The translations under genes and the position numbers were made by a program. 64,000 bases of DNA from an uncultured Atopobium sp. (lineage in GTDB: Bacteria > Actinomycetota > Coriobacteriia > Coriobacteriales > Atopobiaceae), in contig CAMUON010000001.1 of NCBI GenBank assembly GCA_947090525.1, positions 388,473 through 452,472 of the forward strand. Reading direction: 5' to 3'. Below the pieces are notes generated by a model. It saw only the letters and a list, made by a program, of their open reading frames with translations. It was not told the origin of the DNA and did no database searches. Shown in pieces: positions 11,651 through 64,000 of the stretch. Within the stretch, counting starts at the first letter, position 1. Every line of letters begins with the position of its first letter.

Positions 11651-11670
11651 CGGCGAGCGTATGAGCGTTT

Positions 11671-30043: not shown

Positions 30044-30114
30044 AATATTGGCCGCACCTACGCGCGCGGAAGCTGAAAACCTTTCCCTATGTAAATTCTC
30101 TTACGCTCACTACC

Positions 30115-30165
30115 GGATGTTTTGTGGATAGACCGAAGACATAACGGTCTACCACAAAACATCCT
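30115..30165 (+). repeat. Perfect 21-bp-stem / 9-nt-loop hairpin element, copy 1
   Basis: GGATGTTTTGTGGATAGACCG aagacataa CGGTCTACCACAAAACATCC. Recurs with about 75 bp of conserved flank at 63675-63725. Confidence 0.7.
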
Positions 30166-40423: not shown

Positions 40424-40512
40424 GATTCAAGCTAGAATGCTGTCGTCTGAGGTTACTTTTTATCCATTCGTATACAAAGCTATAGCGCATGCGGCTCAGC
40501 AGACATGCGTTT

Positions 40513-40728
40513 ACAAAACGCAGGCGCTCATATTAGAAAAATACCCCACTTTGTCACGTGTTGGAATGGCGACTGCTCGCAGGGCGAAGAAAGCTGTTTT
40601 GTGTTTCTCCAGGTAGTTTCGTTGCAGCTTGTTGATTGTGCTCTAAAAACTAGCCCGACGGACAATATTCGGCTCCCAAACACGTGACAAAGTGGGGTAA
40701 AGTTCTAATATCACTCAATACGTTTTGT
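40513..40728 (+). mobile_element. MITE-like 216-bp element, copy 2
   Basis: Same termini and same length as 11671-11886. The internal segment is diverged but collinear. Confidence 0.55.
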
Positions 40729-41179
40729 GAGAGGTGGAGCGCACAGGTGTTTGACCAGGTGCTTGACCCAGCACGCGCCCGCATTAGTCTGACGTGTAAG
40801 GCCCTCGCGCCCGCGTCATAAGCTACGCGTAATATTCAATAGCCAAGCTGCTGATATATCCAACGCACCCTTATTATCCTGCACTTTGTATAAATCTCCC
40901 AAAATCGCGCGCGAGAGAAATGTATAAAACACCCGAAATCGCTCAAAAATATAATATAAAACGCGCAAAAACAGCCTGACTGATTAGTTTTCTTTGGTTA
41001 ACACGTACGCAACAAAATGATTAAAAATAGGGGAATAAGCCCCAAGTTTGAATAGAAACGTTAACATTTGATGTCCAAATGAGAAAGTAGCCGCGCCTTT
41101 GGAGCTTTTTGGCTATTGTCTTGTGTAACAAAAAGAGCAAGTACGCGCTCTTCCGTATTCGATTTTTAAGGAGGATAAG

Positions 41180-49600: not shown

Positions 49601-51596
49601 TGAGATGTGCAGCGTCCAGGCTTACATGCCCGTTCGCGTCAGTTATGAGCATGTAGCTGCGGTCGGCTTTTGCTTCTTTATTCTCTGCTCCCTTGGTATC
49701 TGTGAAAAAGTCGAGCTGAATTTCGTTATGCTCAAGCGTCGCACTGCCTTGCGCCTTGTTTGTTTTGAGGCCTGAGTCCATGTATTCTATGATGTCTTTT
49801 GTGCGATAGTACTGCGGCGTTTTGATGAGGGAAAGCTCTGCAGTCTTGTCCTTTTCGATGCTGACTTCATATATGGTTTTGTCTGCCACGTAGCCTTTTG
49901 AGCGTTTGAGCTCTTTTACGAAGTAGTGCCCGCGCTTGAGGCTTACCGCATCGATGCTTCCGTCTGGCCGACTCGTGAGTTCACAGACTTTGTAGGTGCA
50001 TTCTTTATCGGTATATACGCCGTGCGTGCTTTCTGCAAAGCTGTAATTGGGATTTTTGTCGCTTAGGGCCGGTACTTTTGAGACCATTTTTGCTGCGAGC
50101 GCGCCTTTTTCAAGATTGATGGCGTCATATTTGATGGTGCCCGTGGTATTTGAAAGTACCTCAAAGCCTGATTTGTCGCAGGAACCTACCCACACTTTAT
50201 ATATATTTTTATCTTGTTTAGCGCTATCCGCTTCCTTCACTTCTGGGAATTGTTTGAGGTAGTAATACCTATTTCCATGGAGATATTCACTTTGGCAGCG
50301 ACCATTTTTATCTGTTGTAATATCTTTTGCCGCGACATAGTTCTTGTTGTATGCAGATGCTTGTTTGGTGCATTCCTCATCCGAATAGATTCGATACGTG
50401 GTATTTGCATGCATGGTGCCCAAAGCTTCCGTATTCAGAATGAGGTATCCGCGCGGACGCAGGTAGTAGTAGGGGCCCATGCGATGTCTATTGAGTATGC
50501 CGCGGTAGGCGATGATATCTTTTGGTAATTCTTTACTGATGATTTGTCTGAATACGCTTGTGTCGCAACGTGTATCGCCTTCGTTACATATTCCGATAAT
50601 ATTTCTACCCATCCAGTCGTGTACGATACCCTTCATGCCGAGGCGGTTGGCATTATCTGTTCCGTAGTAATCCTTTGACGCGTGTTCTGCGATCATCAGA
50701 TAGGTGCACACATAGTAGACATCATCGGTAAGGGGCTCGCCATTCCAGTCGGTTTTTGGCCACATACTCTTGTCGAAACCAGGGCCACCGAATCCGTAAT
50801 ACATGATTTTGAATGGAATATCGTAATCGGGATAGCGGCGGTCCATATCGTTGTCTCGGTCGCAAAGACACACCGCAAGACCAGGTTCTGGATCTTCCGA
50901 GGCAGTCCAGCCATAATATGCAACATCATCACCAACATAGTATTTAGGGGTAGAAGCGCGCGGGCGATCAGAGGAAAATTTATATGGTTTGCGCTCAATA
51001 CGAAGGCCCGAAAAATCGATAATGCTTGATGGGCTATAGCGGACATACTGGTTGGCACCGACAAAATCCTCAGCGAGTGTGTAGAGCGGCGAGAGAACGT
51101 AAGATGATGTCATGGCAGCAATTACAACAAGAGCGAGGCTACACCTGACTGCGCGTGAATACACGAGGTCAAAGAGCGTATGTGGCGTATTCAATGCGTA
51201 CTTTTTTGAAGGTCTCCAGATGCGTGCCTGCATTTTTTTGTGCACGAGCGTGCGCATGCTTTGGAGTATGGGTTTTTTTATGTGATTGTGTATCTTTTTT
51301 TGTAGCTGTTTATGTACCTGCTTGCTTATCTGTTGCATGCGTTTTCTCATGCGCCGCGCACAGGTATGAATGCCTATGCGTAAGGAGCTCATCGGAAAGT
51401 GCTGGCGATACCGTCTCATGGCTAACTCCTTGTGTGTACTCGACGATCCTGGGATAGCGCGGGCAAGCGTGTGAGCGCTGGCGACGTATGGGCTGTTGTG
51501 TGTCCGCCCATGCAATTCCACGTGTTTGCGCGTGGTTAGGATCCATTTGTCTCCTAAAATTCGTTTCCCAAAATCTGATGGAAAGGTGGCACACAT
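46656..51596 (-). CDS. Very large cell-surface adhesin (up to 1646 aa; probable true start near 51257): N-terminal globular domain, multiple Cna-B/SpaA-type beta-sandwich repeats, P/T/G-rich stalk, K/E/D-rich region, C-terminal sorting-signal-like LAQTA plus hydrophobic segment plus KRKR
   Basis: Signal-peptide-like segment at MRTLVHKK...ALVVIAAMT. Repeated GxYxxxEL...GY...Y.V motifs. Stalk encoded by TPGTG repeats. Hydrophobic anchor with basic tail at the C-terminus. Confidence 0.6.
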   Translation of the reverse strand: MCATFPSDFGKRILGDKWILTTRKHVELHGRTHNSPYVASAHTLARAIPGSSSTHKELAMRRYRQHFPMSSLRIGIHTCARRMRKRMQQISKQVHKQLQKKIHNHIKKPILQSMRTLVHKKMQARIWRPSKKYALNTPHTLFDLVYSRAVRCSLALVVIAAMTSSYVLSPLYTLAEDFVGANQYVRYSPSSIIDFSGLRIERKPYKFSSDRPRASTPKYYVGDDVAYYGWTASEDPEPGLAVCLCDRDNDMDRRYPDYDIPFKIMYYGFGGPGFDKSMWPKTDWNGEPLTDDVYYVCTYLMIAEHASKDYYGTDNANRLGMKGIVHDWMGRNIIGICNEGDTRCDTSVFRQIISKELPKDIIAYRGILNRHRMGPYYYLRPRGYLILNTEALGTMHANTTYRIYSDEECTKQASAYNKNYVAAKDITTDKNGRCQSEYLHGNRYYYLKQFPEVKEADSAKQDKNIYKVWVGSCDKSGFEVLSNTTGTIKYDAINLEKGALAAKMVSKVPALSDKNPNYSFAESTHGVYTDKECTYKVCELTSRPDGSIDAVSLKRGHYFVKELKRSKGYVADKTIYEVSIEKDKTAELSLIKTPQYYRTKDIIEYMDSGLKTNKAQGSATLEHNEIQLDFFTDTKGAENKEAKADRSYMLITDANGHVSLDAAHLKDTNDSKLLFPSLDGAAALPLGSIKISHKQSSKGYSSQNFESTHTLSEKPASSGGNDIPKNTIALSVISGDIRVVSNKHDLNELGIPQEAQMDDVNYTIRSKNTQDVVVEGRTHKKDEACLVVHPHVVGASDAKDGLAAQTTGRTLPIGSYTLELSYAKDEKARVLYAQDFTITGSNALVVVNPNAGTQRKPEQFKGAQICARILDKEGNENPLGAASLAGAEFEIKNAGEDAITIGGKSGKSYKKGELITTIKTNAEGRAQTSKHLLPKGKYTLSLHSVGTGYKMSDALKKWNYSVVVNKDDISYELPEHAIPRCEVIRGDFRARLLDLEGKGVLSKKTFVLQDEKTHESHVVMSSEAGIIDTSSNIVAHSESTNTLDYLLNQAQIPRMDASQKPFGCWFSGRDTQTRADDAKGALVFGKYKLTEINIEHKKAKAVSYKFEITREGVTEAVDALKVHRDFVDTQQTKPNDGGSGAGTSTGTTPGTGTTPGTGTTPGTTPGTGAGTGTTPGTGASTGTGTTPDSSTTPGEKPGAGGKTDPSVTPGATPGAGGKTDPGSNPGKKPETTPGTGTVPGTGTGTTPGTGTGTTPGTGGKADPSVAPGTKPDSTPGEKPGTGGKTDPSVIPGATPGSSDKKDPHTTPNTNPSGTIETQPESKEEPKPHTNDKPTIWQDASVFLARVQKALKMFFETDDKKHAYPADPASTKGDNTHSSQADPSQKKPDTTTDPSKPKGNDQTQTPSGAENTPAQKPNEGKNDPSQLKPQEQNTNAGFDASLSRALAKALEDLEAKRNAHRTRRHNSSNELDQKSETGEKKGALDNNDESDELEDNEQASADTKHARKKNKGTSKKSKHARNDKTSQDDEDTEVEDDKKDANKKGIKEGRDDENVIDKQRGDDTADTDEDDAHGRATNDEHTNNPSEEEHSQHEGSSRLAQTADLFLHSPLSVGCASALGAGIMSIAFGYIKRKRFVERSYRRKKRL

Positions 51597-52207: not shown

Positions 52208-52284
52208 GGTGGGTGTAGCTCAGTTGGGAGAGCGCCGGACCGTGGCTCCGGAGGTCGAGGGTTCGAGACCCTCTACCCACCCCA
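52208..52284 (+). tRNA. tRNA-His (anticodon GTG) with encoded G-1 and C73
   Basis: G-1:C73 extra pair (His identity element). Anticodon stem CCGGA/TCCGG, loop CCGTGGC, encoded CCA. Position 33 reads C (unusual); verify with tRNAscan-SE. Confidence 0.75.
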
Positions 52285-52314: not shown

Positions 52315-52390
52315 GGGTCGTTAGCTCAGTTGGTAGAGCAGGGGACTCTTAATCCCAAGGTCGAGGGTTCGACCCCCTCACGACCCACCA
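52315..52390 (+). tRNA. tRNA-Lys (anticodon CTT)
   Basis: First 27 nt match the textbook bacterial tRNA-Lys (GGGTCGTTAGCTCAGTTGGTAGAGCAG). Loop CTCTTAA, encoded CCA. Confidence 0.85.
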
Positions 52391-52435
52391 TTCTTTTTTG
52401 ATTCCAGTCACCATATGTACTACGCGTGAGAAAGC

Positions 52436-52680
52436 GCGCGTGCGCGCCTGCTTAAGCTGGGTATGCATTGGCGCCAGTCTTTTTACGTACAAACCTTTTC
52501 TCCACACGGGGGCTTTTTGCTGCGCATGCGGGCTGGAAACCCCTAGTAGACTGTCCACGCGAACAATTCTTTACGACGTGCCGCACGAGCGAGGAAGCTG
52601 TTTTGTGGGAACGCGTTGCGGGTTTCCGCGTTCGCCGCAAAACCGTTAGCGAGCGCAGATGATTATGGAGCTTGTGGCCT
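52436..52680 (+). repeat. Island-flanking direct repeat, left copy (about 75% identical to 63228-63430)
   Basis: GCGCGCCTGCTTAAGCTGG...GGGGCTTTTTGCTGCGC...GCGCAGATGATT shared with the right copy. Confidence 0.55.
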
Positions 52681-52681
52681 T

Positions 52682-52878
52682 CCGCGCGAGCGTAGAAAAA
52701 AACGGGTTTTTATCTACCGTTTTGACCCGATTTTGACCAAAATCGAGCTCCTCCCGCACCGCCCAAAAAATCCCCGACGCGTTTACCTGCGTATATAAGA
52801 ATTTTAACTAATAAAAATAGTTGAATTATTGATATTTTGGTAGATAACAACCTGATTTTTTCTACGCTCTCCCGCGCG
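52682..52878 (+). mobile_element. 190-bp TIR element B, copy 1 (termini CCGCGCGAGCGTAGAAAAAAACGGG / GATTTTTTCTACGCTCTCCCGCGCGG)
   Basis: Terminal inverted repeats. Its AT-rich interior is the reverse complement of the interior of the copy at 63434-63626. Confidence 0.5.
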
Positions 52879-53112
52879 GTATATACCCCGATATATATGG
52901 AAACGCTGTGGTGTGGTCAGAGCTACATCACAGCGATTCCTATCCCTATACAACAGAATAACTCATTTACACGCTTTTGGTTCTATAGCCCTAATATCCC
53001 AATTTTTCCTTAAAAATCGCCGTTGGCCGAAATGCCGATGAGTTTCAAAATAACAGAAGTATACTTCCCTTATACTATTTGAGCTTTTGTAAAGAGATAT
53101 GGTATTCGAGAT

Positions 53113-53252
53113 AGACAAAAGCCCCTCAGATGAGGGGCTTGCATATTGCAAGATTGGTACCTACGTACCGCCATACAAAACGTAATGGCTTTTAAGGTTA
53201 AACCTTTATTTTGACTTGCAGTGTCACTTTGACTGGAATCAAAGCAAGGCCA
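53113..53252 (-). ncRNA. Predicted tracrRNA (antisense, upstream of cas9)
   Basis: The plus strand at 53207-53250 carries a degenerate repeat-like sequence (TTTTGACTTGCAGTGTCACTTTGACTGG-AATCAAAGC versus repeat TTTTGGAGCAGTGTCATTTTGACTGGTAATCAAAC), so a minus-strand transcript carries an anti-repeat. Minus-strand terminator GCAAGCCCCTCATCTGAGGGGC plus TTTTGT at 53113-53140. Confidence 0.55.
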
Positions 53253-53281
53253 TTGTAATACATTTAGGAGCGTGTAACAAG

Positions 53282-56200
53282 ATGAATTTACGTAAAGCCT
53301 CTGATTATAGTGTAGGACTTGACCTCGGGACTGGTTCGGTAGGTTGGTGTGCTGTAGATAACAATGGCTATCTTTATTCATTTAAGCGCAAGCCTACTTG
53401 GGGAAGTAGGGTTTATGATAGCGCAGCACCCGCAGCCGATGCACGTCAGTTTCGCAGCCTGCGCAGACGTTATGACAGAAGACGTCAGAGGATAAATCTA
53501 TTACAAGGGCTGTTTTCAGAGGAAATGAAACATGTAGACCCTGATTTTTTCATCCGCTTGAATCAATCGCAATTACTCAAAGAAGACAGAGATGAGACTT
53601 GTAAGGAATATGCATGTCCACTTTTTAAAACTGTTGCGGATGAAAAAGAGTATTACAAAACGTATCCAACGATTTACCATCTTCGCGCAGCTCTTATGCA
53701 TGCAAACCAGAAAATGGATTTGCGGTTAGTTTATCTAGCACTGCATAACATTGTTAAATATCGCGGTAACTTTTTGTATCAGGAATACGCTCATCTATCT
53801 GCAAAAGACGCAGGCTTATCCGAGCAATCTAGCAACTTTCTTACGAGTATTGAACATTTTGAAGACGATCGTTGTATAAGTTTTACTTATGATACCGCAG
53901 AAATTATTCATTTCCTGAATAATTTAAAGCCAACACGAGCACAAAATCGTGATGAATGGCAAAAGCTGTTTGTGTGTGAGGCAAGCGACGACATTCCTGG
54001 AAAACAGGCAAAAGACATCACTAAATGCATTGCTCAAGCAATATTCGGATATCAAGCTGATTTCTCAGCGCTATTTGGAACTGAAAAAGAAAAATCAAAG
54101 TTTACGTTATCTCAAGATGAAAAGGTTATGGCGTTCGAAGAGCTATGCCCCACAGAATTTCTGCCCTTATTTAACGCGCTTAAAGCAATGTATTCTGCAT
54201 ATCTTCTAACAACCATCATAAGAGGCTCCAATGGCGGCACAATTTCAAACGCAAAAATTGCTCAATATAATGCATATCACGATGACCTCGCAAAGCTTAA
54301 GAAGCTTGTGAAACGCATACTAGGCAAGGATGAGTACGATACATTCTTTCAGGGTGTATATTACAAGAATACCAAGTTGTACAACAAGCAAAAAGCAGAA
54401 GGATACACCGCTTACAACTTGGGCAAACTAAGCTACGATGAGTTCAAAAAAGACCTTAAAAAGTTGATTGAAAAACTCGAAAAAAGCGGGGTTTTGAGCG
54501 CTGAAGATGATGCGTGGGTACAGCAGATTCCTACTCGTGTGGACAACGAAGAATTTCTAAGACGGCTGAGAACGAGTGATAACGGTAGTATTCCTTATCA
54601 GTTACATCTTGAGGAAATGGACGCGATCATTAAAAACCAAGGCAAATACTATCCGTTCTTACTCAAAGAAAAAGACAAAATTGAGTCGCTTATAACGTTT
54701 AGGATTCCTTACTATGTAGGACCTCTTACTCTAAAAAATGCTGCACGCGATGCTTATGGTAAGACTCGCTTTGCATGGATACAAAAGAAAGAGGGCGCCG
54801 AAAAAACACGGATACTACCATGGAACTGGGAGGATGTTGTCGATAAACATGCAACGGCCGAAGCGTTTATTAGAAGAATGACTGGTAAATGTACTTATTT
54901 GTATGCTGAAGATGTACTTCCAAAGTGTTCACTTTTATATCAGAAGTTTTGTGCATATAACGAGCTAAATGGTATGCGCTGGACAACAGATAATGACCAG
55001 TATAATCGCTTTAGTGCCGACTACAGAGAGGGTGTTTATAACGATCTTTTTGTTAGGAGTAACGGAAAAGTTACGTACAAAAAGATAGAACACTGGCTCG
55101 AACAGCAAGGTGAATTGCACCCTCATGTAAAAGGCGGTCAGGGAGAAAACGGGCTTGAAAGCAGGCTTTCATCGTACCATTTCTTTAAAGATTTGCTCGA
55201 GTTTGATGTTCTTACAGCTCGGCAAGAAAAAGAAATCGAAAAGATTATTTTATGGAGCACCATCTTTGAAGATCGAACCATTTTGAAAGAAAAGCTCAAG
55301 GCTCAGTCGTTTCAAACTGAATTTACATCTGCGTTTAGTCGTGTTTTAACCGCAGAACAGATACAAAAAATTTGTAAAAAACGATTTACCGGCTGGGGCA
55401 AGCTTTCTAAAAAGCTGCTTACTGGTTTGTCTGTAGATATAGATGGTGAACGTCTTAACATTCTCGATTTGCTGATACACGGTGATGTAACAGATGGTCG
55501 TGCTGGCCGCGCGCTTATTTTTCAAGAGATTGTGACCATGAAGCAATTTAAGGAAGCAATATCAAAAACAAACGAAGAAGCGCTTTCGAAATGCATAATT
55601 GATATAGACGACCTACCTTGCTCACCAGCAGATAAACGCACGGTCAACCAGGCACTTCGCGTGGTAGATGAAATTGCGTCTATTGCTAGTTGCGCGCCCT
55701 CACGAATTTTTATTGAGGTCACACGAGAGGAGGATACAAAAAATAAAGGCAAACGTACAGACAAGCGCACTTCAAAGCTCGAAATGGGGCTCAAAAAGCT
55801 TCGTGACAGCGAGGACACCAAGGCCATTCTCGCAGAACTTTCTGCTCATAAAAATCTAGATGAAAAACTCACGCTATACTTTGCACAAAATGGAAAATCA
55901 CTGTATTCGGGCACGCCACTAGATATTAACGAGCTTTCGCATTATCAGGTAGATCATATAATTCCACAATCATATATAAAAGACGACAGCATAGACAACA
56001 AGGCACTTGTACTTGCAAGCGAAAACCAGCGTAAGAGTGACAGCTTACTCCTAGATGATAGTATTCGCAGAAAGATGAGCAATACTTGGACCGCGCTATT
56101 TAAGGCGGGTCTTATGAGCGAAAAGAAATTCAATAATTTGAAGTGCTCAAGCATTACAGATCGTCGGCTAAAATCGTTCATCAATCGGCAGCTGGTAGAA

Positions 56201-57484
56201 ACGAGCCAAATTTGTAAGTATGCCATGCAACTATTTAAAGCAAAGTACCCACATTGCGAGGTTATACCAGTTAAGGCGGGCATATCTTCTGGTATTCGCC
56301 ATACATGGAACATTGCTAAGTGCCGTGAGGCAAATGATTACCACCATGCGCACGATGCATATTTAGCGTGTGAGGTAGGGCGTTTTATACAGCTTCATTA
56401 TCCAAAAATTTATAGCAACCCAACGGCATACAACAAAGAAGTGCGTGGTCTTATACAGTCAAATATTGTACACAGCGCTAGTGAGGGGAATGGCAGATAT
56501 AGACTGCCGGGTGACTCAGGGTGGCTTACCTATAGTTTTGCGCATAAAAAGACCTCTGCGTGGGATTGTGATGCTGAGCGAGATCGTCTGCTAAAGTATG
56601 TTGACTACCCTGACTGCCATATCACGCGCATGGCATATATAGAAACGGGTGCATTTTGGGATCAGACACTTTATTCGCCTCATGCTGGGAAAAAAGATCT
56701 TATACCTCTCAAGAAACATCTTGACACTCATAAGTACGGCGGGTATTCAAGTAAAAAATACGCACTATTTTTCGTATATTCTTTGCAGAAGAAAAAAGGC
56801 AACAAGGAATATTGTTTATCCGGCTTACCCATAGCTACACTTGCGGAAGCCACTCATAACACAACAGGTAAAATCGATATGGATCGACTCATTCAACTTG
56901 AAGAACAATCTATTCAACTTGAAAAGCAACTTATCACAACTCATCATGCGCCTATCCAGATAGTACAGCCAATCGTGTATAAAAATCAGCTTATCGAATT
57001 TAAAGGGAGACGAGAAATAATTACAGGTAAAAAGGAACGAAGAAATGCTCGGGAACTTGCATTTAAGCAGCAGCATATGCGTTTGCTCAAGATGTGGGAT
57101 GGTGATCTTAAAGGGAAGTATCGTGAGAAAAAAGAAGGCGTTGACGAAGATTGTCTACTCAACGAGATGTTCGATTTGATATTAGAAAAGACGTCTCACT
57201 ATGCACCTATGTTGCATAAAAGACTACTAGACATCGTAAATGCAAACGCGAATGACTATTCACGTATCGAAATGATCTTTGCTGCAATTAAAGATCAAAA
57301 TGATAAAAAAGCTGTCTTGTTTAACATCATTAGCAATGCAAATGCAAATAAAAACATGATTGACTTGACGGCTATTGGGGGAAGTGCAAATTTCGGAGCA
57401 ATTAAAGATCAGCCTAAACAATTTGACATTATTGAACAATCAGTAACAGGTATGTTTGAGAAAAGGATTCACATTGGGATTTAG
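53282..57484 (+). CDS. cas9: Type II-A CRISPR-associated endonuclease Cas9 (about 1400 aa)
   Basis: RuvC-I (YSVGLDLGTGSVGWCAV), Arg-rich bridge helix (RRRYDRRRQRI), HNH (YQVDHIIPQS...N...S). Local GC about 40% versus the higher-GC flanks. Confidence 0.9.
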   Translation: MNLRKASDYSVGLDLGTGSVGWCAVDNNGYLYSFKRKPTWGSRVYDSAAPAADARQFRSLRRRYDRRRQRINLLQGLFSEEMKHVDPDFFIRLNQSQLLKEDRDETCKEYACPLFKTVADEKEYYKTYPTIYHLRAALMHANQKMDLRLVYLALHNIVKYRGNFLYQEYAHLSAKDAGLSEQSSNFLTSIEHFEDDRCISFTYDTAEIIHFLNNLKPTRAQNRDEWQKLFVCEASDDIPGKQAKDITKCIAQAIFGYQADFSALFGTEKEKSKFTLSQDEKVMAFEELCPTEFLPLFNALKAMYSAYLLTTIIRGSNGGTISNAKIAQYNAYHDDLAKLKKLVKRILGKDEYDTFFQGVYYKNTKLYNKQKAEGYTAYNLGKLSYDEFKKDLKKLIEKLEKSGVLSAEDDAWVQQIPTRVDNEEFLRRLRTSDNGSIPYQLHLEEMDAIIKNQGKYYPFLLKEKDKIESLITFRIPYYVGPLTLKNAARDAYGKTRFAWIQKKEGAEKTRILPWNWEDVVDKHATAEAFIRRMTGKCTYLYAEDVLPKCSLLYQKFCAYNELNGMRWTTDNDQYNRFSADYREGVYNDLFVRSNGKVTYKKIEHWLEQQGELHPHVKGGQGENGLESRLSSYHFFKDLLEFDVLTARQEKEIEKIILWSTIFEDRTILKEKLKAQSFQTEFTSAFSRVLTAEQIQKICKKRFTGWGKLSKKLLTGLSVDIDGERLNILDLLIHGDVTDGRAGRALIFQEIVTMKQFKEAISKTNEEALSKCIIDIDDLPCSPADKRTVNQALRVVDEIASIASCAPSRIFIEVTREEDTKNKGKRTDKRTSKLEMGLKKLRDSEDTKAILAELSAHKNLDEKLTLYFAQNGKSLYSGTPLDINELSHYQVDHIIPQSYIKDDSIDNKALVLASENQRKSDSLLLDDSIRRKMSNTWTALFKAGLMSEKKFNNLKCSSITDRRLKSFINRQLVETSQICKYAMQLFKAKYPHCEVIPVKAGISSGIRHTWNIAKCREANDYHHAHDAYLACEVGRFIQLHYPKIYSNPTAYNKEVRGLIQSNIVHSASEGNGRYRLPGDSGWLTYSFAHKKTSAWDCDAERDRLLKYVDYPDCHITRMAYIETGAFWDQTLYSPHAGKKDLIPLKKHLDTHKYGGYSSKKYALFFVYSLQKKKGNKEYCLSGLPIATLAEATHNTTGKIDMDRLIQLEEQSIQLEKQLITTHHAPIQIVQPIVYKNQLIEFKGRREIITGKKERRNARELAFKQQHMRLLKMWDGDLKGKYREKKEGVDEDCLLNEMFDLILEKTSHYAPMLHKRLLDIVNANANDYSRIEMIFAAIKDQNDKKAVLFNIISNANANKNMIDLTAIGGSANFGAIKDQPKQFDIIEQSVTGMFEKRIHIGI

Positions 57485-58355
57485 AACTGTCATCCTCAAT
57501 ACTCCCTGTCGATGCACCTATCAAGGTGGGTACCTGGTTGTTCGTCAAGAGGACAAGCAGCCGCGGGTTCACCTTGGTGAGATTTCATCTATTATGCTTG
57601 GTACCGAGCAGATATTCCTAAGTGCGTATTTGCTTGCTGAGCTCGCAAAACTTAAAATTCCTGTAATTGTTACTGACGAAAAGCATAACCCCGTGGGTGA
57701 ATACTTACCCCTCTATGGCGCGCATAACTGCTCAAAATGTATGCTTGAGCAGCTCGCATGGGGCGAAGTGATAAAAAAACAAGTATGGCGCAGCATTGTT
57801 CAACACAAAATACTGCAACAGAGTTCCATGCTCGCTTATCTTGGCTACTCGGATGCAGCGAAAACATTGGAAGAATATGCCTCAAAAACAAAATCCGGCG
57901 ATACTACCAAAAGAGAAGCCGTGGCCGCTCGACTGTATTTCCTGACACTGTTTGGATCTGAGTTTACAAGAGATCAAAACACTCCTTTGAATGCCTGTTT
58001 GAACTATGGATATGCCATTCTATTGGCGCATGCAAACAGAGAAATTGTGTCTCACGGATATCTCACGCAACTCGGTATTTTTCACCGCAGCGAATTTAAT
58101 CACTTTAATTTGGCGTGTGACCTTATAGAGCCGTTCCGGCCGCTTATCGATAAAATTGTATGTGAACATTTTGCACAGAATTTCGATAATGATATACGAC
58201 ATGCGCTTTGTGGTTTCGTGGATTATCAGCTGTTCTATATGAACGGTAGATACAAAGCGGCGTCTGTAATTAAGTCGTACATATCAGACTGTTTAGCTGC
58301 ACTCAACAAAGAGAAACTTCCTGCCGAAATTAAGCCATTTGGGTTCATACTATGA
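57456..58355 (+). CDS. cas1: CRISPR-associated integrase Cas1 (type II); possible TTG start at about 57474 giving MGFRTV
   Basis: Collinear with streptococcal type II-A Cas1 (GFRTVILN...YLPLYG...LNYGYAILLA...IEPFRPLIDK). Confidence 0.85.
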   Translation: MRKGFTLGFRTVILNTPCRCTYQGGYLVVRQEDKQPRVHLGEISSIMLGTEQIFLSAYLLAELAKLKIPVIVTDEKHNPVGEYLPLYGAHNCSKCMLEQLAWGEVIKKQVWRSIVQHKILQQSSMLAYLGYSDAAKTLEEYASKTKSGDTTKREAVAARLYFLTLFGSEFTRDQNTPLNACLNYGYAILLAHANREIVSHGYLTQLGIFHRSEFNHFNLACDLIEPFRPLIDKIVCEHFAQNFDNDIRHALCGFVDYQLFYMNGRYKAASVIKSYISDCLAALNKEKLPAEIKPFGFIL

Positions 58356-58684
58356 ATACGACAAGGATACGGTTTATGAGGTTGATAGTATTTTTTGATC
58401 TACCCATGGAGACCCATGCTCAGAAAAAGTCTTACACGGATTTTAGGAGATTTTTATTGCATGATGGCTATCTCATGATGCAAAAGTCTGTTTATGTCAA
58501 GCTCATTATCAATGAGCAAAATGCTTCGGCAGTCATTGCGCGCTTAAAACTTCATAAGCCGCAGTATGGCTTGGTTCAGTTACTGAAGGTGACCGAAAAG
58601 CAATACGCCAACATAGAATATGTTTGCGGTAACTCTAGCTCACAAAATATGGTTGAAACTCTGGAAAGCTTACTTATATTATGA
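58352..58684 (+). CDS. cas2: CRISPR-associated endoribonuclease Cas2
   Basis: IRFMRLIVFFDLPMET...KSYTDFRRFLLHDGYLMMQKSVY matches the canonical Cas2 N-terminus. Overlaps the cas1 stop. Confidence 0.85.
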   Translation: MNTTRIRFMRLIVFFDLPMETHAQKKSYTDFRRFLLHDGYLMMQKSVYVKLIINEQNASAVIARLKLHKPQYGLVQLLKVTEKQYANIEYVCGNSSSQNMVETLESLLIL

Positions 58685-59364
58685 ACATACGTTTTAGTGG
58701 CTTATCGAAAATAATTGACCTGAAGAAAGGGCATCCATTTTTTGTCTGTGTTGAGAACCGCCATCTTTATGCCAGATTTATATATTCACTTTTATCTGCA
58801 GCAGGAGAAGAGTCGCCTGAGCCATATACCTTGTGGAACGATAATGATGAAAAGCTCCAGCCCAAAAATCACTTTCTGTGGGTGACCGATCCCTTTCATC
58901 TGCCTTTCGAAAACAAGCTTCTAATGGGTGAAGTACTCAACGGAATTGCAAGCAGCATTGATGATGGCTTTGAAACCCAGGAAGAGTTTAAAGATATAAC
59001 GAGACAGTTATACAAGCTTTTTCTGTTGGAAACGTATCAGTATAAAGGTAATTATGCTATTTCACCTGATGTTGACATTCACAAGATTCTCAAGCTCATG
59101 AGTTTTTCTCCAGACACGTCCCGGGACAATAATTTTCTAGATGAGCTAATCAACTTTATACATATTGCCAGAGACGCATCTCTGATTCAGCCAATCGTTT
59201 TTGTGGGAATTTGTTCTTTTTTGACTGTTAAAGAGATAGAATTATTGCTAGAAGAGATAAAAAATTCTTGTTTATGCGTGCTGTTTTTTGAAAATCGAAT
59301 TCCCTGTGATGCTGTTTATGAAGAAGAGCATATACTACTTGACCTGGATTTTCTTGAGAGTTAA
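58681..59364 (+). CDS. csn2: Csn2 (type II-A signature protein)
   Basis: 227 aa immediately after cas2 and before the array. Architecture like the short-form Csn2. Confidence 0.75.
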   Translation: MNIRFSGLSKIIDLKKGHPFFVCVENRHLYARFIYSLLSAAGEESPEPYTLWNDNDEKLQPKNHFLWVTDPFHLPFENKLLMGEVLNGIASSIDDGFETQEEFKDITRQLYKLFLLETYQYKGNYAISPDVDIHKILKLMSFSPDTSRDNNFLDELINFIHIARDASLIQPIVFVGICSFLTVKEIELLLEEIKNSCLCVLFFENRIPCDAVYEEEHILLDLDFLES

Positions 59365-59419
59365 GTAGGAAAAACCAGCTAAGATGGCCGTTCCCTCGCA
59401 GTGGGAAATTTGTTTCAAG

Positions 59420-60639
59420 GTTTTGGAGCAGTGTCATTTTGACTGGTAATCAAACTCTTGGGCTTACTATTACATTTAAGGCTGTGTTTTGGAGCAGTGT
59501 CATTTTGACTGGTAATCAAACGTGCTGCTTCTTTTTAAGCGAACTTATACCGTTTTGGAGCAGTGTCATTTTGACTGGTAATCAAACTATTGATTCTGAG
59601 GGTATGATTCATGTTGCGTTTTGGAGCAGTGTCATTTTGACTGGTAATCAAACTTAGTGTAAACTACGCCAGTGGTGTCGTTAGTTTTGGAGCAGTGTCA
59701 TTTTGACTGGTAATCAAACCAACGCTTATAGCGTAGTATGTAATGTGTGTTTTGGAGCAGTGTCATTTTGACTGGTAATCAAACAAGAAGCAGCACAACG
59801 ACACGAACGCGCTCGTTTTGGAGCAGTGTCATTTTGACTGGTAATCAAACATATTGCTACGAGGTATTATACGGTCGCGAGTTTTGGAGCAGTGTCATTT
59901 TGACTGGTAATCAAACCATCAACGCTATCTTTGGAGTGAACGTTACGTTTTGGAGCAGTGTCATTTTGACTGGTAATCAAACTGCGTTCGACGTGATCGA
60001 TTCGCTCGGGTTGTTTTGGAGCAGTGTCATTTTGACTGGTAATCAAACTATAAAGTGCATTATCAAGCCATTCACCTTGTTTTGGAGCAGTGTCATTTTG
60101 ACTGGTAATCAAACAGAATGTACCACGACGAGGAGAACGCGCAGTTTTGGAGCAGTGTCATTTTGACTGGTAATCAAACGCGAGGCCGTAGACCTTGAGG
60201 AAGCGACGGTTTTGGAGCAGTGTCATTTTGACTGGTAATCAAACCAGCGGACCTGATTTTATTCGGCTTATAGTGTTTTGGAGCAGTGTCATTTTGACTG
60301 GTAATCAAACCCGTCGGGTTGGCATACGATACCGAGTTCAGTTTTGGAGCAGTGTCATTTTGACTGGTAATCAAACGCGAGGCCGTAGACCTTGAGGAAG
60401 CGACGGTTTTGGAGCAGTGTCATTTTGACTGGTAATCAAACCAGCGGACCTGATTTTATTCGGCTTATAGTGTTTTGGAGCAGTGTCATTTTGACTGGTA
60501 ATCAAACCCGTCGGGTTGGCATACGATACCGAGTTCAGTTTTGGAGCAGTGTCATTTTGACTGGTAATCAAACTCTTGGTGCAAAATGTCTTTGAATGTG
60601 GTTGTTTTGGAGCAGTGTCATTTTGACTGGGGAATATCC
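59420..60639 (+). CRISPR. CRISPR array: 19 copies of the 36-bp repeat GTTTTGGAGCAGTGTCATTTTGACTGGTAATCAAAC, 18 spacers (29-31 bp), terminal repeat degenerate/truncated; leader 59365-59419
   Basis: Repeat starts at 59420, 59486, 59552, 59618, 59684, 59749, 59815, 59881, 59947, 60013, 60079, 60144, 60209, 60275, 60341, 60406, 60472, 60538 and 60604. Spacers 12-14 are exactly duplicated as 15-17. Confidence 0.95.
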
Positions 60640-60709
60640 ATTGACCTTATCATATATAACGAAGGTTATCATAATATATAACAACAACCTGAAACCAAAA
60701 GAGCCGGAT

Positions 60710-60796
60710 ATGGATCAGGTTGTTGTAATGTTTTTTATCAGCTTCTTATCAAATTTTTTAGCGGTAGTGTTAGCTGATGCAATCCGCAAGAAATAA
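60710..60796 (+). CDS. Small hydrophobic peptide (28 aa, MDQVVVMFFISFLSNFLAVVLADAIRKK); paralogue of 61527-61622
   Basis: Single predicted TM helix with C-terminal RKK. Same overall architecture as peptide B. Confidence 0.3.
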   Translation: MDQVVVMFFISFLSNFLAVVLADAIRKK

Positions 60797-60977
60797 AGAC
60801 AAGCTGATAGTATAGGTGAGGCGTGTTGACAGCGCGCCTTATTCTCATCCTACCAGATTAGGGGATGAGAATTGTAGAGCTCATAGGAATTTTGTTGGAC
60901 ACTCTCACGAGCTATAGAGCTTACCATTGGCAGGCTTGTTATGTATGGTTTTACCACAAAAGGAAGGAGCATGAGAC

Positions 60978-61166
60978 ATGGCGACAGAAGCAAGACTAAG
61001 AGCAAATAATAACTACGTTAAACACAACGTAAAGAAAGTATCAATAGCGTTTTATCCAAAAGACAAAGAAATGTATGCATGGGTCGCGCAACACCCTAGC
61101 AAGGCTGGTTATATTCGCGAGCTCATAGTAAAAGACATGCAGGCGAAAAGAGACAGCCAACATTAA
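60978..61166 (+). CDS. Ribbon-helix-helix (CopG/Arc/MetJ-like) small protein, paralogue 1 (62 aa)
   Basis: AAGGAAGGAG RBS. KKVSIAFYPKDKEMYAWV...YIRELIVKDM fits the RHH strand-helix-helix pattern. Paralogous to 61622-61819. Confidence 0.5.
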   Translation: MATEARLRANNNYVKHNVKKVSIAFYPKDKEMYAWVAQHPSKAGYIRELIVKDMQAKRDSQH

Positions 61167-61211
61167 AAAAGCTTGTATAAGCGTACAGCATGCATAACAA
61201 GTTTATAGAGA

Positions 61212-61246
61212 GGGCGGACGGTCATAATACGTTCGCCCTTTTTGTT
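61212..61246 (+). terminator. Rho-independent terminator (GGGCGGAC...GTTCGCCC plus T-run) after RHH paralogue 1
   Basis: GC stem followed by TTTTTGTTT. Confidence 0.55.
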
Positions 61247-61328
61247 TGTGTGTGCATTAACGTGCATACACTGGTACGATATAGAGTAGGTAGTATAATA
61301 ATAAGCAGCAAGAAAGGAGGTGGTTAAA

Positions 61329-61466
61329 TTGGACACCGAAGCACTCTTGCTGAACCTTTTATGCTCGGTTCTTGGTGGTTTGATTATTGAGCTACTGAAA
61401 TTGGGTATAAAAGAAGCTCCAAAGCTTAAGCTAGGGAAAGCAAAGAAAGCAAAGGAGCGAAAGTAA
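61329..61466 (+). CDS. Small peptide A (45 aa, TTG start): hydrophobic helix plus Lys-rich tail (…LGKAKKAKERK)
   Basis: Strong AAAGGAGG RBS 8 nt upstream of the TTG. Confidence 0.3.
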   Translation: MDTEALLLNLLCSVLGGLIIELLKLGIKEAPKLKLGKAKKAKERK

Positions 61467-61526
61467 CAAAGATGCTGGGGAGTTCGCTCCTCAGCGTCTT
61501 ACGTACAGTATAAAGGGGTGATTGCC

Positions 61527-61622
61527 ATGGAGCAATACATTTACATGATTATCACAAGCGCTTTGGGGTACCTTGTAGCGCACTATATCGTGAGGGTAAT
61601 AGAGGCTCTAAGAAAGAAGTAA
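61527..61622 (+). CDS. Small hydrophobic peptide B (31 aa, MEQYIYMIITSALGYLVAHYIVRVIEALRKK), translationally coupled (TAATG) to RHH paralogue 2
   Basis: AAAGGGG RBS. TM helix plus RKK tail. Its stop overlaps the next ATG. Confidence 0.35.
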   Translation: MEQYIYMIITSALGYLVAHYIVRVIEALRKK

Positions 61623-61819
61623 TGAAGATGGTTTCAGATGCACAGAAGCGCGCAAACGCTAACTATAAAAGGAGAAGCACTAAAACAAAGCAGATAGTGT
61701 TCTTTCCCGATGATATGGACTTGTTCGAGTGGGTAGGCACGCAGCCGAAACAAAATGCGTATCTAAAAGACCTCATCAGAAAGGATATGCAAGCTCACAA
61801 ACAAAATGAGCAGCAATGA
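61622..61819 (+). CDS. Ribbon-helix-helix small protein, paralogue 2 (65 aa)
   Basis: KQIVFFPDDMDLFEWV...YLKDLIRKDM. Paralogous to 60978-61166. Confidence 0.5.
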   Translation: MKMVSDAQKRANANYKRRSTKTKQIVFFPDDMDLFEWVGTQPKQNAYLKDLIRKDMQAHKQNEQQ

Positions 61820-61865
61820 GCAGCAATGAGCAAGAGTGAGCAGCTTTGAGCAGCAATGAGCAGCG
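61805..61865 (+). repeat. 10-bp tandem repeat (ATGAGCAGCA x6, with variants) at the 3' end of RHH paralogue 2
   Basis: Seen directly. The period is not a multiple of 3. Confidence 0.7.
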
Positions 61866-62037
61866 CTTATAGCGTAGTATGGAATTGTGAAGCCGTAGGG
61901 GAAACCTTGCGGCTTTTTAATAGGCGGGGGGTATCCTTTCTGAATACGCGCACCGCTCGACGCCATTCAAGAAAAGATGCTTGAGTGGTATTGCCTCGAG
62001 GATGCAAAAGAAGACGAACAGGACGACTTAATACGCG

Positions 62038-62904
62038 TTGACGCACGATCTTGGAGACGATGAATTCATGCGGCTCCTGGCGGAAGATGTAGGTTGCGAA
62101 GTCTATCACCATGCCAACCGTACAACAAAGCATAATGCCGCGAAAAACAGTGTCCGTTATGCGCGCGTGCCCTTTGGTAACTCATGTGCATTTTGCTTGA
62201 TGTTAAGTACCCGCGGCTTCGTGTACCTCTCAAGGACGTCAGCAGGTGAAGACAAGGGGCACTATCACGCACATTGCCATTGCAAAATCGTGGCAAGTAA
62301 GAAAGGTACCACGATCGACGGTTACGATCCTGAGGGGCTCGACTACCGCATACATCAAGTTGCTCAAGAGCTCGGCATTTCCGATTTTAATTGGCAGGAT
62401 TATATGCGCAATCCTGCTATGCAAGCTATGCTGCAAAAAGAAATACGTCTGCGTGACAAAGACTGGTTGCTTACAGGCATGCCGTCTGAGGTAGATTATG
62501 AAAATGAACTTGCTGAGAAGAACGCGCATGCCCATGAAATCGAGCAAGCTAAACGTTTGGCGCAGCACGGCATTAAGTGCACCTTTCAGGTTGATTATGA
62601 GGTTGATGAGAAGACAAAGGGCACAGCAAGACAGAAGACCATTGGCAAGACAGACCTCGCTAATGGTATTGAGCTTAAGAGCTTGGGACACACGACAAAC
62701 CTAAGAAAGAGGATAGAGAAAGAACTCAGGAACTCAAGAGATAAAAAGGGCTTTAAATCGTGTCATTTCGATGCATATGATACGGACTTTGATGAAATAG
62801 AAATATCAAAGGCTTTGAAGGACAAAATGAAACAAGTGCACATTAGGCGAAGTTCTTTTATAGACTCTGATGGGCAATATCACGTCGTTCAGGTAAATAA
62901 ATAA
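62038..62904 (+). CDS. Hypothetical protein with N-terminal Cys/His cluster (C-x2-C ... H-x-H-C-H-C), K/E-rich C-terminal half; AT-rich, probably of mobile-element origin
   Basis: GNSCAFC...GHYHAHCHC suggests a Zn-binding or HUH-like site. No confident family assignment. Confidence 0.4.
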   Translation: MTHDLGDDEFMRLLAEDVGCEVYHHANRTTKHNAAKNSVRYARVPFGNSCAFCLMLSTRGFVYLSRTSAGEDKGHYHAHCHCKIVASKKGTTIDGYDPEGLDYRIHQVAQELGISDFNWQDYMRNPAMQAMLQKEIRLRDKDWLLTGMPSEVDYENELAEKNAHAHEIEQAKRLAQHGIKCTFQVDYEVDEKTKGTARQKTIGKTDLANGIELKSLGHTTNLRKRIEKELRNSRDKKGFKSCHFDAYDTDFDEIEISKALKDKMKQVHIRRSSFIDSDGQYHVVQVNK

Positions 62905-63037
62905 AAAAGAGACTACGACAGGGTAACCCCCGAAGCAGCCTCTCTTATTACAGCCACTATACCACATCAACATCGTTAATCAAAGAGCCTGCATAGGCTC
63001 TTTTTTTATACATCCGCACGGATAGGAAGGACACATC

Positions 63038-63244
63038 ATGGCTAAAGATGATGTACAGCAAGTACAGGACGTCGAAGCGACAGACGCGCACGCAGAAGCT
63101 GCAGAAACCGATTGGAAAGCACAGGCGCGCAAATGGGAAAAACGCGCTAAAGAGAACAGCGCGGCAGCAGATGAGCTCGCCAAGCTTAAGGAGTCGCAGA
63201 TGACAGAGCTCGAACGCATTCAAGCGCGCATGCGCGCCTGCTGA
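63038..63244 (+). CDS. Small acidic/coiled-coil hypothetical protein (68 aa)
   Basis: ORF with an upstream GGAAGGA RBS-like sequence. Its 3' end runs into the right flanking repeat. Confidence 0.3.
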   Translation: MAKDDVQQVQDVEATDAHAEAAETDWKAQARKWEKRAKENSAAADELAKLKESQMTELERIQARMRAC

Positions 63245-63430
63245 AGCTGGTGAGTGCTCCGCATCAGCCTTTTCATGTACAAATTCGTTTCCTCACGCTG
63301 GGGCTTTTTGCTGCGCGTGAACAGAAAACCATGGTAGCAGGCGCAGATGATTTACAAGCATGCTGGTAGCTCGTGCAATAGACTTGCCATCAAGAATTTC
63401 TTGAGAACTTTCTTCTGCCGAGATTTTTAG
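63228..63430 (+). repeat. Island-flanking direct repeat, right copy
   Basis: See 52436-52680. Confidence 0.55.
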
Positions 63431-63433
63431 CCC

Positions 63434-63626
63434 CCGCGCGAGCGTAGAAAAAAACGGGTTTTTATCTACCAAAATATCAAAATTTCAACTAAATTCGATA
63501 GTTTAATTTCTTATATGCGCAGCTACGCGCTTTGGGCGATTTTTTGAGGTGCCGCGGGGGCCTCGAATTTGGCCAAAATCAGGCAAAAACGGTAGACAAA
63601 AAGGCCTTTTTTTCTACGCGCGAGAG
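63434..63626 (-). mobile_element. 190-bp TIR element B, copy 2 (inverted relative to copy 1)
   Basis: Same termini (CGCGCGAGCGTAGAAAAAAACGGGTTTTTATCTACC). The interior is the reverse complement of copy 1. Confidence 0.5.
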
Positions 63627-63674
63627 TGGGGGCAGAAAAGCCTGCCTTGTATATATTCATGTGCGCTCACTATC

Positions 63675-63725
63675 GGATGTTTTGTGGATAGACCGAAGAC
63701 CTAACGGTCTACCACAAAACATCCT
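63675..63725 (+). repeat. Perfect 21-bp-stem hairpin element, copy 2
   Basis: Identical stem to 30115-30165; loop aagacctaa. Conserved flanks GCTCACTA(C/T)C and ATCCTCCTCGTTCGC, plus about 60 bp of similar downstream sequence. Confidence 0.7.
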
Positions 63726-63854
63726 CCTCGTTCGCACGGATCTCCTACCAGGCTTTTCAGCGGCCGCGTGTGCGTAGCAAAAAACCAAGCGTGAGGAACG
63801 AGTGCAAGCTCGCTAACGCCTTCGCGGAAGCTTTTTCCTGCAGAAACCCTTCAC

Positions 63855-63921
63855 CCCACACAAAAGCCTCCAGCACCCACACAAAAGCCTCCCCGCACAC
63901 ACAAAAGCCACCCCGCACCCG
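63855..63921 (+). repeat. Three tandem 21-22-bp repeats (CACACAAAAGCCTCC(A/C)(G/C)CAC-like)
   Basis: Seen directly. Confidence 0.6.
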
Positions 63922-64000
63922 CGTGCCATCTACCTGCAGCGATACAAAACCCAAGCGTATCTGTGCAATTTCTCCACTCACGAAAAAAAATTCTTTTTTG

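Follow-up and report, generated by a model that had tools for sequence, protein, structure and literature searches.

Strain-variable type II-A CRISPR-Cas loci, found at fixed chromosomal sites between conserved genes as in Enterococcus faecalis CRISPR1-cas and the streptococcal II-A loci, are what we take to be the closest described systems to the one analyzed here. Mosaic families of intergenic repeats are exemplified by REP/BIME of Escherichia coli, BOX/RUP of pneumococci and the Correia elements of Neisseria. The type II-A CRISPR-Cas system of Streptococcus agalactiae is among those that have been described (PMC4466440), and the type I-E system on the Vibrio island GI-24 provides an example of a tRNA-associated or excisable island (PMC6360697). 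The stretch of DNA examined here, hereafter the window, comprises 64,000 nucleotides of an uncultured Atopobium sp. (assembly GCA_947090525.1, contig CAMUON010000001.1) and contains a complete type II-A CRISPR-Cas locus, i.e. trans-activating CRISPR RNA (tracrRNA), cas9, cas1, cas2, csn2 and an array of 18 spacers. This locus lies in a segment between tRNA-Lys(CTT) and gap that is present in some strains of the host species and missing from another.

The variable segment extends from position 52398 to position 63349 of the window (10,952 bp) and is absent from the conspecific contig L088 (149 kb), which was retrieved by an exact-protein look-up with the LivG of the window; every comparator in this analysis is a metagenome assembly. 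In L088, the liv genes, the surface protein, tRNA-His and tRNA-Lys are followed by 148 bp of other sequence, then by the series Y-TIR_B-X' (Y, a spacer module; TIR_B, copy B of an element with terminal inverted repeats, TIRs; X', a hairpin module), and then by gap. Comparison with BLAST places the breakpoints at 52397|52398 and 63349|63350, whereby position 17832 of L088 corresponds to window position 52397 and position 17981 to window position 63350, and the L088 flanks are 97.5-100% identical to those of the window. The 148-bp filler that takes the place of the 10,952 bp matches nothing else that was fetched, which argues against assembly collapse across repeats. The segment begins 7 nt past tRNA-Lys (52315-52390, plus strand; ARAGORN and Rfam), the left anchor of the variable region, which is preceded by tRNA-His (anticodon GTG; 52209-52284, plus strand; ARAGORN; Rfam tRNA model, 59.5 bits); an Rfam scan of 51.5-64 kb (E ≤ 1) recovered these two tRNAs and nothing else. 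The segment contains the CRISPR-Cas locus, two small open reading frames (ORFs) and 1.18 kb that derive from the head module of a siphovirus. The CRISPR-Cas segment is accessory, that is, it shows a presence/absence polymorphism between conspecific strains with exact breakpoints. A reading of the window from its sequence alone (hereafter, the sequence-only reading) had placed the locus on an island beside tRNA-His and tRNA-Lys, had suggested that the island was acquired or could be lost as a unit, and had proposed a comparison of this site in related strains. When that comparison was made, the adjacency of the two tRNAs was confirmed, with the segment abutting the 3' end of tRNA-Lys; the boundaries had to be corrected to 52398-63349; and the segment was indeed found to be present or absent as one block, with either direction of change compatible with the data.

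At least six contigs of the species carry an island at this site (the window, L001, L006/L135, L120, L134 and L124/125), as opposed to the single empty one. In L120, which shares the flanks of the window and encodes a Cas9 94% identical to that of the window, the island includes copy A of the TIR element (TIR_A) and lacks the right-hand copy of a direct repeat module (DR_right), Y, TIR_B and part of X'. From strain to strain, the alleles of the island form mosaics, with 75-100% identity depending on the segment compared: csn2 is 100% identical between the window and L001, cas9 shares 88.5% identity with that of L001 over its first third, and cas1 is 88.9% identical to its counterpart in L001 and 75.7% identical to that in L006. 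Across strains, TIR_A is 99-99.5% identical, versus 98-100% identity of the flanks to L088. Between strains with different upstream flanks, homology resumes at tRNA-Lys. Islands about 99% identical to that of L001 are joined at tRNA-Lys to two further left flanks, so that three are observed in all. The left flank in L124 (1-8868) carries prfB-secA and more genes, with a GC content of 0.438 and a different tRNA-His, and the right flank of the same contig is 99% identical to L088; the left flank in L002 (1-1353) encodes a choline-binding-repeat protein and has a GC content of 0.372, compared to 0.499 in the backbone of the window. Both the spacers and the tRNA-His genes differ between the islands with alternative left flanks and the window. 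These junctions would be explained either by transfer between lineages or by chimeric contigs that cross the shared island.

In a sister lineage (L127 and L131-133; Cas9 85-86% identical; flank GC 0.44), the cas locus is located after rlmD and is not accompanied by a tRNA or by DR, X or TIR modules; the sequence common to the window and the rlmD-site locus is limited to 53157-59851 and the two small ORFs. A further sister-lineage contig, L118 (GAPDH 95% identical), has rsmD-coaD-yceD upstream of gap. The backbone genes of the window have a GC content of 0.507 ± 0.021 and a GC content at third codon positions (GC3) of 0.517 ± 0.042, compared to 0.403 and 0.370 for cas9, 0.430 and 0.417 for cas1, and 0.376 and 0.368 for csn2. 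The conclusion that the CRISPR-Cas locus is compositionally foreign is thus supported. The AT-richness that the sequence-only reading attributed to the entire island is, however, confined to its cas part (52398-61750, GC 0.412), whereas 61751-63349, with small ORFs and the phage fragment, has a GC content of 0.474, near that of the backbone. No ORF for an integrase or a recombinase was detected in 52398-63349 or within approximately 10 kb on either side, in agreement with the lack of an integrase noted previously for the window.

The explanation that we favor, with a probability of about 0.6, is that the region between tRNA-Lys and gap is a hotspot of recombination, rich in repeats, in which the CRISPR-Cas segment is an accessory element whose exchange or loss proceeds by recombination, either homologous or illegitimate. 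As regards the mechanism, the question of gain versus loss and the history of the phage, we infer a course of events in which DNA would be exchanged with relatives and homologous recombination in the conserved flanks, namely tRNA-Lys on the left and the gap-proximal repeat with the promoter region on the right, would introduce, replace or remove the segment; illegitimate deletion would be an alternative route to loss, and no dedicated integrase or transposase would be required. The low GC content of the cas genes (0.38-0.43) would fit an exchange with the lower-GC sister lineages (~0.44). The decayed prophage in the segment is evidence of former phage attachment in this region, and an old phage integration at tRNA-Lys probably opened it.

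Several observations weigh against this explanation. The evidence for the empty site comes from a single contig, and the comparators, as noted, are without exception metagenome assemblies. The 148-bp filler turns the empty allele into a replacement rather than a clean insertion or deletion, such that the polymorphism does not indicate in which direction the change occurred. A left breakpoint 7 nt after tRNA-Lys would also be expected of an island made by an integrase, and an imperfect 33-nt copy of the tRNA-Lys 3' end is found near gap (26 of 33 positions matched, compared with at most 22 in the nulls). At 63349/63350, the right breakpoint falls on a boundary between repeat modules, which may therefore be more than bystanders; in L109, a contig from a related organism, DR-X abuts Y-TIR at the point equivalent to this breakpoint. 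Finally, a perfect direct identity of 37 nt between ends of TIR_A and TIR_B is not accounted for by this explanation.

Among the alternatives, the one that fares best, and that we nevertheless consider rather unlikely, is an ancestral resident locus, vertically inherited at this site and lost from L088 by one illegitimate deletion, with nothing having been acquired as a unit. The ratio of at least six island-bearing contigs at the same site to one empty contig is in line with such a history. So is the diversity of Cas9, which forms a clade of its own, with more than 20 clusters that are 83-95% identical, suggestive of long residence; beyond this clade, the relatives of this Cas9 are at most 48% identical, and all belong to Coriobacteriia (Slackia, Eggerthella, Hugonella and Olsenella). 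Vertical inheritance is, however, difficult to square with a GC3 of 0.37 versus 0.52 in the backbone, with identities that range from 75.7% to 100% segment by segment, and with a near-identical island on three different left flanks. In addition, the cas locus of the sister lineage resides elsewhere and L118 has rsmD-coaD-yceD upstream of gap, and a plain deletion in L088 leaves the 148-bp filler unexplained.

A second alternative draws on tRNA-Lys and on the phage-derived part of the segment. Positions 62041-63216 (plus strand) are derived from a phage: at the DNA level they are 79% identical to 1.17 kb (4315-5481) within the siphovirus head module of L137. The ORF at 62038-62904 corresponds to the 3' two-thirds of a gene for a VG15/MuF-like minor capsid protein or head protease (Pfam VG15, E = 1.2e-31; PHROG 13257, "head maturation protease", E = 8e-30). 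Full-length homologues of the VG15 type are about 390 aa in length, and the closest of them, 78% identical, lies in a siphovirus head module with genes for terminase, portal, VG15, scaffold, major capsid and tail proteins. The ORF at 63038-63244 consists of the first 68 codons of a scaffold gene (PHROG 9857, E = 9e-15), and this gene is interrupted exactly at the start of DR_right. A peptide-pattern search of IMG/VR yielded no relative of the phage protein. The left copy of the 33-nt imperfect repeat (52374-52406, plus strand) is composed of the last 17 nt of tRNA-Lys and 16 nt of the flank. The right copy (63974-64006, plus strand), located approximately 250 nt upstream of gap, is cut by the end of the window, which includes its positions 63974-64000, and continues as TTTCCA in L088; the motif upstream of gap at this copy is CTCACGA...TTCTTTTTTG. 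The null maximum of 22 matches was the best of 500 Markov-1 sequences.

These findings could be combined into an island made by an integrase, in which a phage-like element that entered the 3' end of tRNA-Lys carried, or later gained, CRISPR-Cas, the 33-nt repeats are attachment (att) scars, and the integrase has since decayed together with most of the element, leaving the island immobile. We regard such an origin as unlikely. It would accommodate the start of the segment 7 nt after tRNA-Lys, the match between the 33-nt repeats, the presence inside the segment of the siphovirus head fragment, in an orientation fitting an integrase-proximal tRNA, and the deviation in GC content (0.41 vs. 0.50) along with the presence/absence polymorphism. 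However, no integrase is encoded within approximately 10 kb, and the right 33-nt copy is not part of what varies: it lies 625 bp beyond the variable segment, is present in the empty-site contig L088, and is replaced by a solo TIR end in alleles of the L001/L006 type. Moreover, the T-rich half of this copy is ancestral gap-upstream sequence that is also found in the related species L008, where there is no tRNA, and the cas locus of the sister lineage is away from any tRNA. No repeat was identified at 63349/63350, and the variable segment has neither an att pair nor a target-site duplication at its ends. We therefore treat the 33-nt repeat as a lead for an old integration and not as proof of one; an attP of an L137-type phage matching CTCACGACCCACCATTCTTTTTTG, if found, would support an old integration at tRNA-Lys.

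The remaining alternatives involve the repeats around the locus, which the sequence-only reading had taken as the signature of a bracketed island or recombination cassette. The DR modules belong to a family of dispersed repeats of approximately 115-130 nt, with a left copy at 52432-52560 and a right copy, DR_right, at 63222-63349 (both on the plus strand) and further copies at 30185-30420; the right copy cuts the scaffold gene short and closes the variable segment. The DR core (52432-52528 vs. 63222-63319) is 78.8% identical over 99 nt (E = 4e-15), and extension of the pair to 52432-52560 vs. 63222-63349 gives 72% identity and an alignment score of 50.5, where shuffled sequences reached at most 12; the sequences that follow (52561-52680 vs. 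63350-63433) are 41% identical, no better than shuffles. A direct repeat of approximately 100-130 nt and 72-79% identity is thus real, whereas the longer one claimed from the sequence alone, 52436-52680 vs. 63228-63430 at about 75% identity, is 58% identical over that span. The left copy of the hairpin-forming X module (52581-52654, plus strand) shows an inverted match to 63703-63739 and 63808-63827, and its hairpin (52594-52646) has a folding energy of -14.8 kcal/mol (z = -2.4).

Two TIR elements of about 190 bp in opposite orientation are present, as had been reported. TIR_A (52680-52876, plus strand; ~197 bp; nhmmer E = 6e-58) is inside the variable segment and is conserved at 98.5-99.5% between strains. 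Module Y (63350-63431) and TIR_B (63432-63630; nhmmer E = 3e-65), assigned together to the minus strand (63350-63630), are outside the segment, being present in the empty-site contig L088 and absent from L120. The inverted bodies of the two copies form 219-nt arms that are 74% complementary. A 29-nt TIR end motif occurs three times in the window with at most three mismatches, against zero occurrences expected, and the remaining one of the four TIR ends, on the right of TIR_B, has diverged further from this motif. In direct orientation, the outer 37 nt of TIR_A (52682-52718) and of TIR_B (63434-63470) show 100% identity; the alignment of the family assigns this 37-mer to the "right-end" type, so that copy A has two right-type ends. 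The notion that each TIR end forms a stable hairpin was rejected given that the end hairpins are thermodynamically weak (z between -0.5 and -1.2). A structured RNA in the TIR element was rejected as well, the covariation term in RNAalifold being -0.25 kcal/mol and the TIR pairs invariant; the same analysis revealed only one small internal hairpin with a few compensatory changes.

To the right of TIR_B, the X' hairpin module is followed by an inverted DR-like module (63632-63860, minus strand). The X' hairpin has a folding energy of -17.4 kcal/mol (z = -8.5), and 63632-63759 is 83.6% identical to 30072-30199 of the window. In alleles of the L001/L006/L124 type, the X'/DR block right of TIR_B (63607-63793) is inverted and only about 82% identical (L006 10714-10894; L001 14720-14900), and the sequence beside it is 97-99% identical. 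Beside the gap promoter, L006 contains one more copy of DR as well as a solo TIR end.

These modules are not confined to the locus. A third repeat cluster in the window (30058-30510), in which a single X module is accompanied by two or three DR modules, lies between convergent genes and includes a hairpin of -18.5 kcal/mol (z = -8.1). When the JGI metagenomes were scanned with the TIR-end pattern and the copies scored with an nhmmer profile, six full-length TIR elements (E between 1e-53 and 1e-65) were identified on five ODUA01 contigs from a related organism, namely L101, L104, L108, L109 and L116, the last with two copies. They lie beside unrelated housekeeping genes, among them those for RNase D-like, NUDIX and RNase J proteins, and in many cases DR, X and Y modules are next to them in a different order. 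Five arrangements of modules were observed: DR-X-TIR (left side of the locus in the window), DR-Y-TIR-X'-DR (right side), X-DR-DR (the cluster at 30 kb), DR-X-Y-TIR (L109) and TIR-DR-X (L108). Thus, TIR, DR and X make up a dispersed mosaic family of intergenic repeats that also occurs elsewhere in the genome and in relatives. The sequence-only reading had itself allowed for such an outcome, holding that its island would be refuted if the flanking similarity belonged to a widespread intergenic repeat; with the cluster at 30058-30510 and at least six TIR copies in the relative, this is what was found.

In several respects, the TIR element resembles miniature inverted-repeat transposable elements: its TIRs are 36-46 nt long, it measures 190-200 bp, it has no coding capacity, and it occurs in multiple dispersed copies in unrelated contexts (two copies belong to the window, and at least six others are spread over five contigs of the relative). 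No direct repeats abut TIR_A or TIR_B, so that target-site duplications are absent at these copies, for which there is no matched pair of filled and empty sites; and no autonomous partner with the same TIRs and a transposase was found in any fetched locus. The degenerate TIR-end pattern had 0 matches in the GTDB representative genomes, where the representative of this species is evidently missing or too fragmented, and one single-end match in IMG/VR, which was taken as chance. Neither the TIR element nor the small-ORF region had a match in the phage and plasmid collections, and for the repeat family as a whole nothing was found in Rfam, in those collections or in the GTDB representative genomes. 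In L116 (1-2092), two inverted TIR copies, opposite-facing relative to the pair in the window, flank an ORF of 421 aa for which no match was obtained in Pfam or PHROG; its C-terminus, judged by eye only, may resemble a DUF559/Vsr-like nuclease domain. A second, unrelated dispersed repeat (~230-250 bp, 72-79% identity) occurs at 11665-11910, just downstream of tRNA-Ala (11446-11521), and at 40507-40731, upstream of the liv operon, as well as in L109 (392-627).

At the locus, the repeats are bystanders or, at most, substrates for recombination, and are not termini of a mobile element: TIR_B is outside the variable segment, retained in L088 and missing from L120, and both DRs along with TIR_A are inside the segment, so that the repeats do not mark the ends of an island. 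Deletion by recombination between the two DRs was rejected as the source of the empty site because L088 contains no DR copy. A composite transposon was rejected on account of the retention of TIR_B in the empty site, its absence from L120 and the opposite-facing copies in L116. An inverton was rejected, too, given that copy A is in the plus orientation in 11 sequences (the window and 10 loci) and copy B in the minus orientation in 8 (the window and 7 loci), or 10 and 7 independent sequences, respectively, as L006 and L135 were both cut from one contig; there was no sign of an invertase, nor is there a convincing promoter inside the TIR element.

A cassette mediated by these repeats, in which TIR, DR and X would be active sites of recombination or transposition served by a recombinase encoded elsewhere and the CRISPR locus would be the cargo of a composite element, appears improbable to us. 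Such a cassette would be consistent with the placement of TIR_A where the interior of the variable segment begins and of DR_right where it ends, with the right breakpoint at a module junction, with the 37-nt direct identity of the two TIR copies, with the 99-99.5% conservation of TIR_A as opposed to 88-90% for neighboring sequence, with the TIR-flanked single ORF in L116 and with the inversion, between allele types, of the segment right of TIR_B. However, TIR_B remains in the empty site and L120 has an island without it, target-site duplications are not visible, and the orientation of TIR_A and of TIR_B is the same in every assembly. Furthermore, the orientation of the L116 copies is opposite to that of the pair in the window, and their cargo is without a Pfam or PHROG match, its C-terminus looking to the eye like a nuclease domain and not a transposase; the cas locus of the sister lineage lacks such repeats altogether, and the TIR end hairpins are unremarkable. 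Least probable of all, in our estimate, is that TIR, DR and X act as recombination joints for a recombinase encoded elsewhere, such that defence cassettes would be swapped beside tRNA-Lys and between lineages of different GC content with no integrase in cis, as might be hinted by the module-junction breakpoint, the 37-nt identity, the TIR_A conservation and the three left flanks.

The CRISPR-Cas locus itself has the full set of type II-A components. The cas9 gene (53282-57484, plus strand) encodes a protein of 1400 aa with RuvC, HNH, REC and PI domains (Pfam Cas9_REC, E = 3e-124; Cas9_PI, E = 2e-35; HNH_4; Cas9_RuvC; and the bridge helix, Cas9-BH). Downstream, on the same strand, are cas1 (57456-58355; Pfam Cas_Cas1, E = 2.5e-26), cas2 (58352-58684; CRISPR_Cas2, E = 6.6e-14) and the subtype II-A marker csn2 (58681-59364; Cas_Csn2, E = 1.1e-14). 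The array (59420-60639, plus strand) consists of 19 repeats of 36 nt (GTTTTGGAGCAGTGTCATTTTGACTGGTAATCAAAC), the last of them degenerate, and 18 spacers. A putative tracrRNA is encoded on the minus strand (53112-53248), its ends being predicted from the sequence; the candidate anti-repeat (53205-53248), a promoter-like site (53280-53252) and a predicted terminator (53140-53119) followed by a T-run would fit a divergently transcribed tracrRNA. Spacers 12-14 (60180-60340) recur exactly as spacers 15-17 (60377-60537), in an internal duplication of 197 bp. When the 51 distinct spacers from all fetched arrays were compared with the related phage contigs L137-139, no match was found.

Spacer 5 (59720-59748) has a counterpart within the island. 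In L001, L002, L003, L006, L124 and L125, it matches a site just past the 65-aa ORF at 29 of 29 positions; the intact targets include L006 8828-8856, L001 12778-12806 and L124 17728-17756, and the protospacer is followed by GAAGCCG. The corresponding site in the window (61861-61888, plus strand) differs by two substitutions and a 1-nt deletion toward its 3' end, and the copy in L120 is likewise altered. Spacer 5 thus appears to be a self-targeting spacer whose genomic target in the window escaped by mutation, and it offers a lead for work on the protospacer adjacent motif and interference or for anti-CRISPR searches. The 65-aa ORF has at its 3' end six or seven tandem copies of a 10-nt unit (TGAGCAGCAA; 61797-61872), which directly precede the mutated protospacer.

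The two small ORFs, of 62 aa (60978-61166, plus strand) and 65 aa (61622-61819, plus strand), are paralogues with weak matches to PHROG 4223 (E = 4.5e-6 and 2.5e-4, respectively) and a shared ending, ...YI(R/K)ELI.KDM. Both accompany the cas locus even in the sister lineage, where they are found on both sides of it in inverted orientation (L131 8597-8788; L132 9009-9315): the 62-aa ORF is 90% identical to L131 8622-8789, and L132 9009-9315 matches 61720-61406 of the window, in the region of the 65-aa ORF. The pair could encode regulators or be anti-CRISPR-associated genes.

The host is an uncultured Atopobiaceae species. The best match of its GAPDH in GTDB, from a metagenome-assembled genome labeled "uncultured Atopobium sp.", is 99% identical at the protein level but only 83% identical at the DNA level, which indicates a related species; other relatives are Collinsella, Olegusella and Lancefieldella. 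In the related genera, no tRNA was found within 10 kb upstream of gap, so the locus comparison had to be made within the species. The segment is flanked on the left by the liv genes and the surface protein and on the right by gap-pgk-tpi-secG-opp; the window stops within an intergenic region, and these genes are located some 250 nt further on in the same-species contigs L006 and L088. The surface protein (1646 aa, with SpaA domains; 46656-51596, minus strand) adjoins tRNA-His and contains internal repeats at approximately 47.7-48.1 kb. Its length varies among strains (L001, L088, L089, L120 and L134), with versions of 1567 aa, of 1498 + 129 aa, or truncated at 295 aa. In L120 (23788-24203, compared to L006 14598-14846), tpi is followed by a gene for an AAA_14/DUF4143 ATPase in the place that secG takes in other strains; this gene is a further strain-variable insertion, a few kilobases to the right of the CRISPR site.

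Compared to known systems, the locus shares features with three groups. Like the islands typified by Vibrio GI-24, it is adjacent to a tRNA, deviates in composition, is sporadic among strains and has phage-derived DNA alongside; unlike them, it has no integrase and no att pair at the variable ends, and it is of type II-A rather than I-E or I-F. Like REP/BIME, BOX/RUP and Correia elements, the repeats of the window are short, non-coding and intergenic, occur in several copies per genome and consist of modules in varying order and orientation, some of which are stable palindromic units forming strong hairpins (for X modules, -17.4 and -18.5 kcal/mol with z near -8, and -14.8 with z = -2.4) and one of which has terminal inverted repeats. 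They differ from those families in having no sequence similarity to them, no target-site duplication, and no partner transposase of the RAYT or insertion sequence (IS) type that could be found. As a by-product, a previously undescribed mosaic repeat family has thus come to light, and the locus illustrates that flanking repeats can mimic the termini of an island while being ordinary dispersed intergenic repeats. The likeness to what are presumably the nearest systems, the II-A loci of E. faecalis and streptococci, extends to the gene set (tracrRNA, cas9, cas1, cas2, csn2 and array), to presence or absence at one chromosomal site, to the lack of mobility genes and to a likely role of homologous recombination in the flanks. 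No new principle is involved. It is well known that CRISPR-Cas loci can be accessory and lie at hotspots and on islands, as in Vibrio (PMC6360697); what is added is an exact-breakpoint record of an accessory, recombining Cas9 system in an uncultured gut or oral member of Atopobiaceae, which bears on the turnover of defence loci in Coriobacteriia. Here, in contrast to the loci of E. faecalis and streptococci, the host belongs to Atopobiaceae (Coriobacteriia), the site between tRNA-Lys and gap combines mosaic repeats with a phage fragment, and the empty allele carries a filler of 148 bp.

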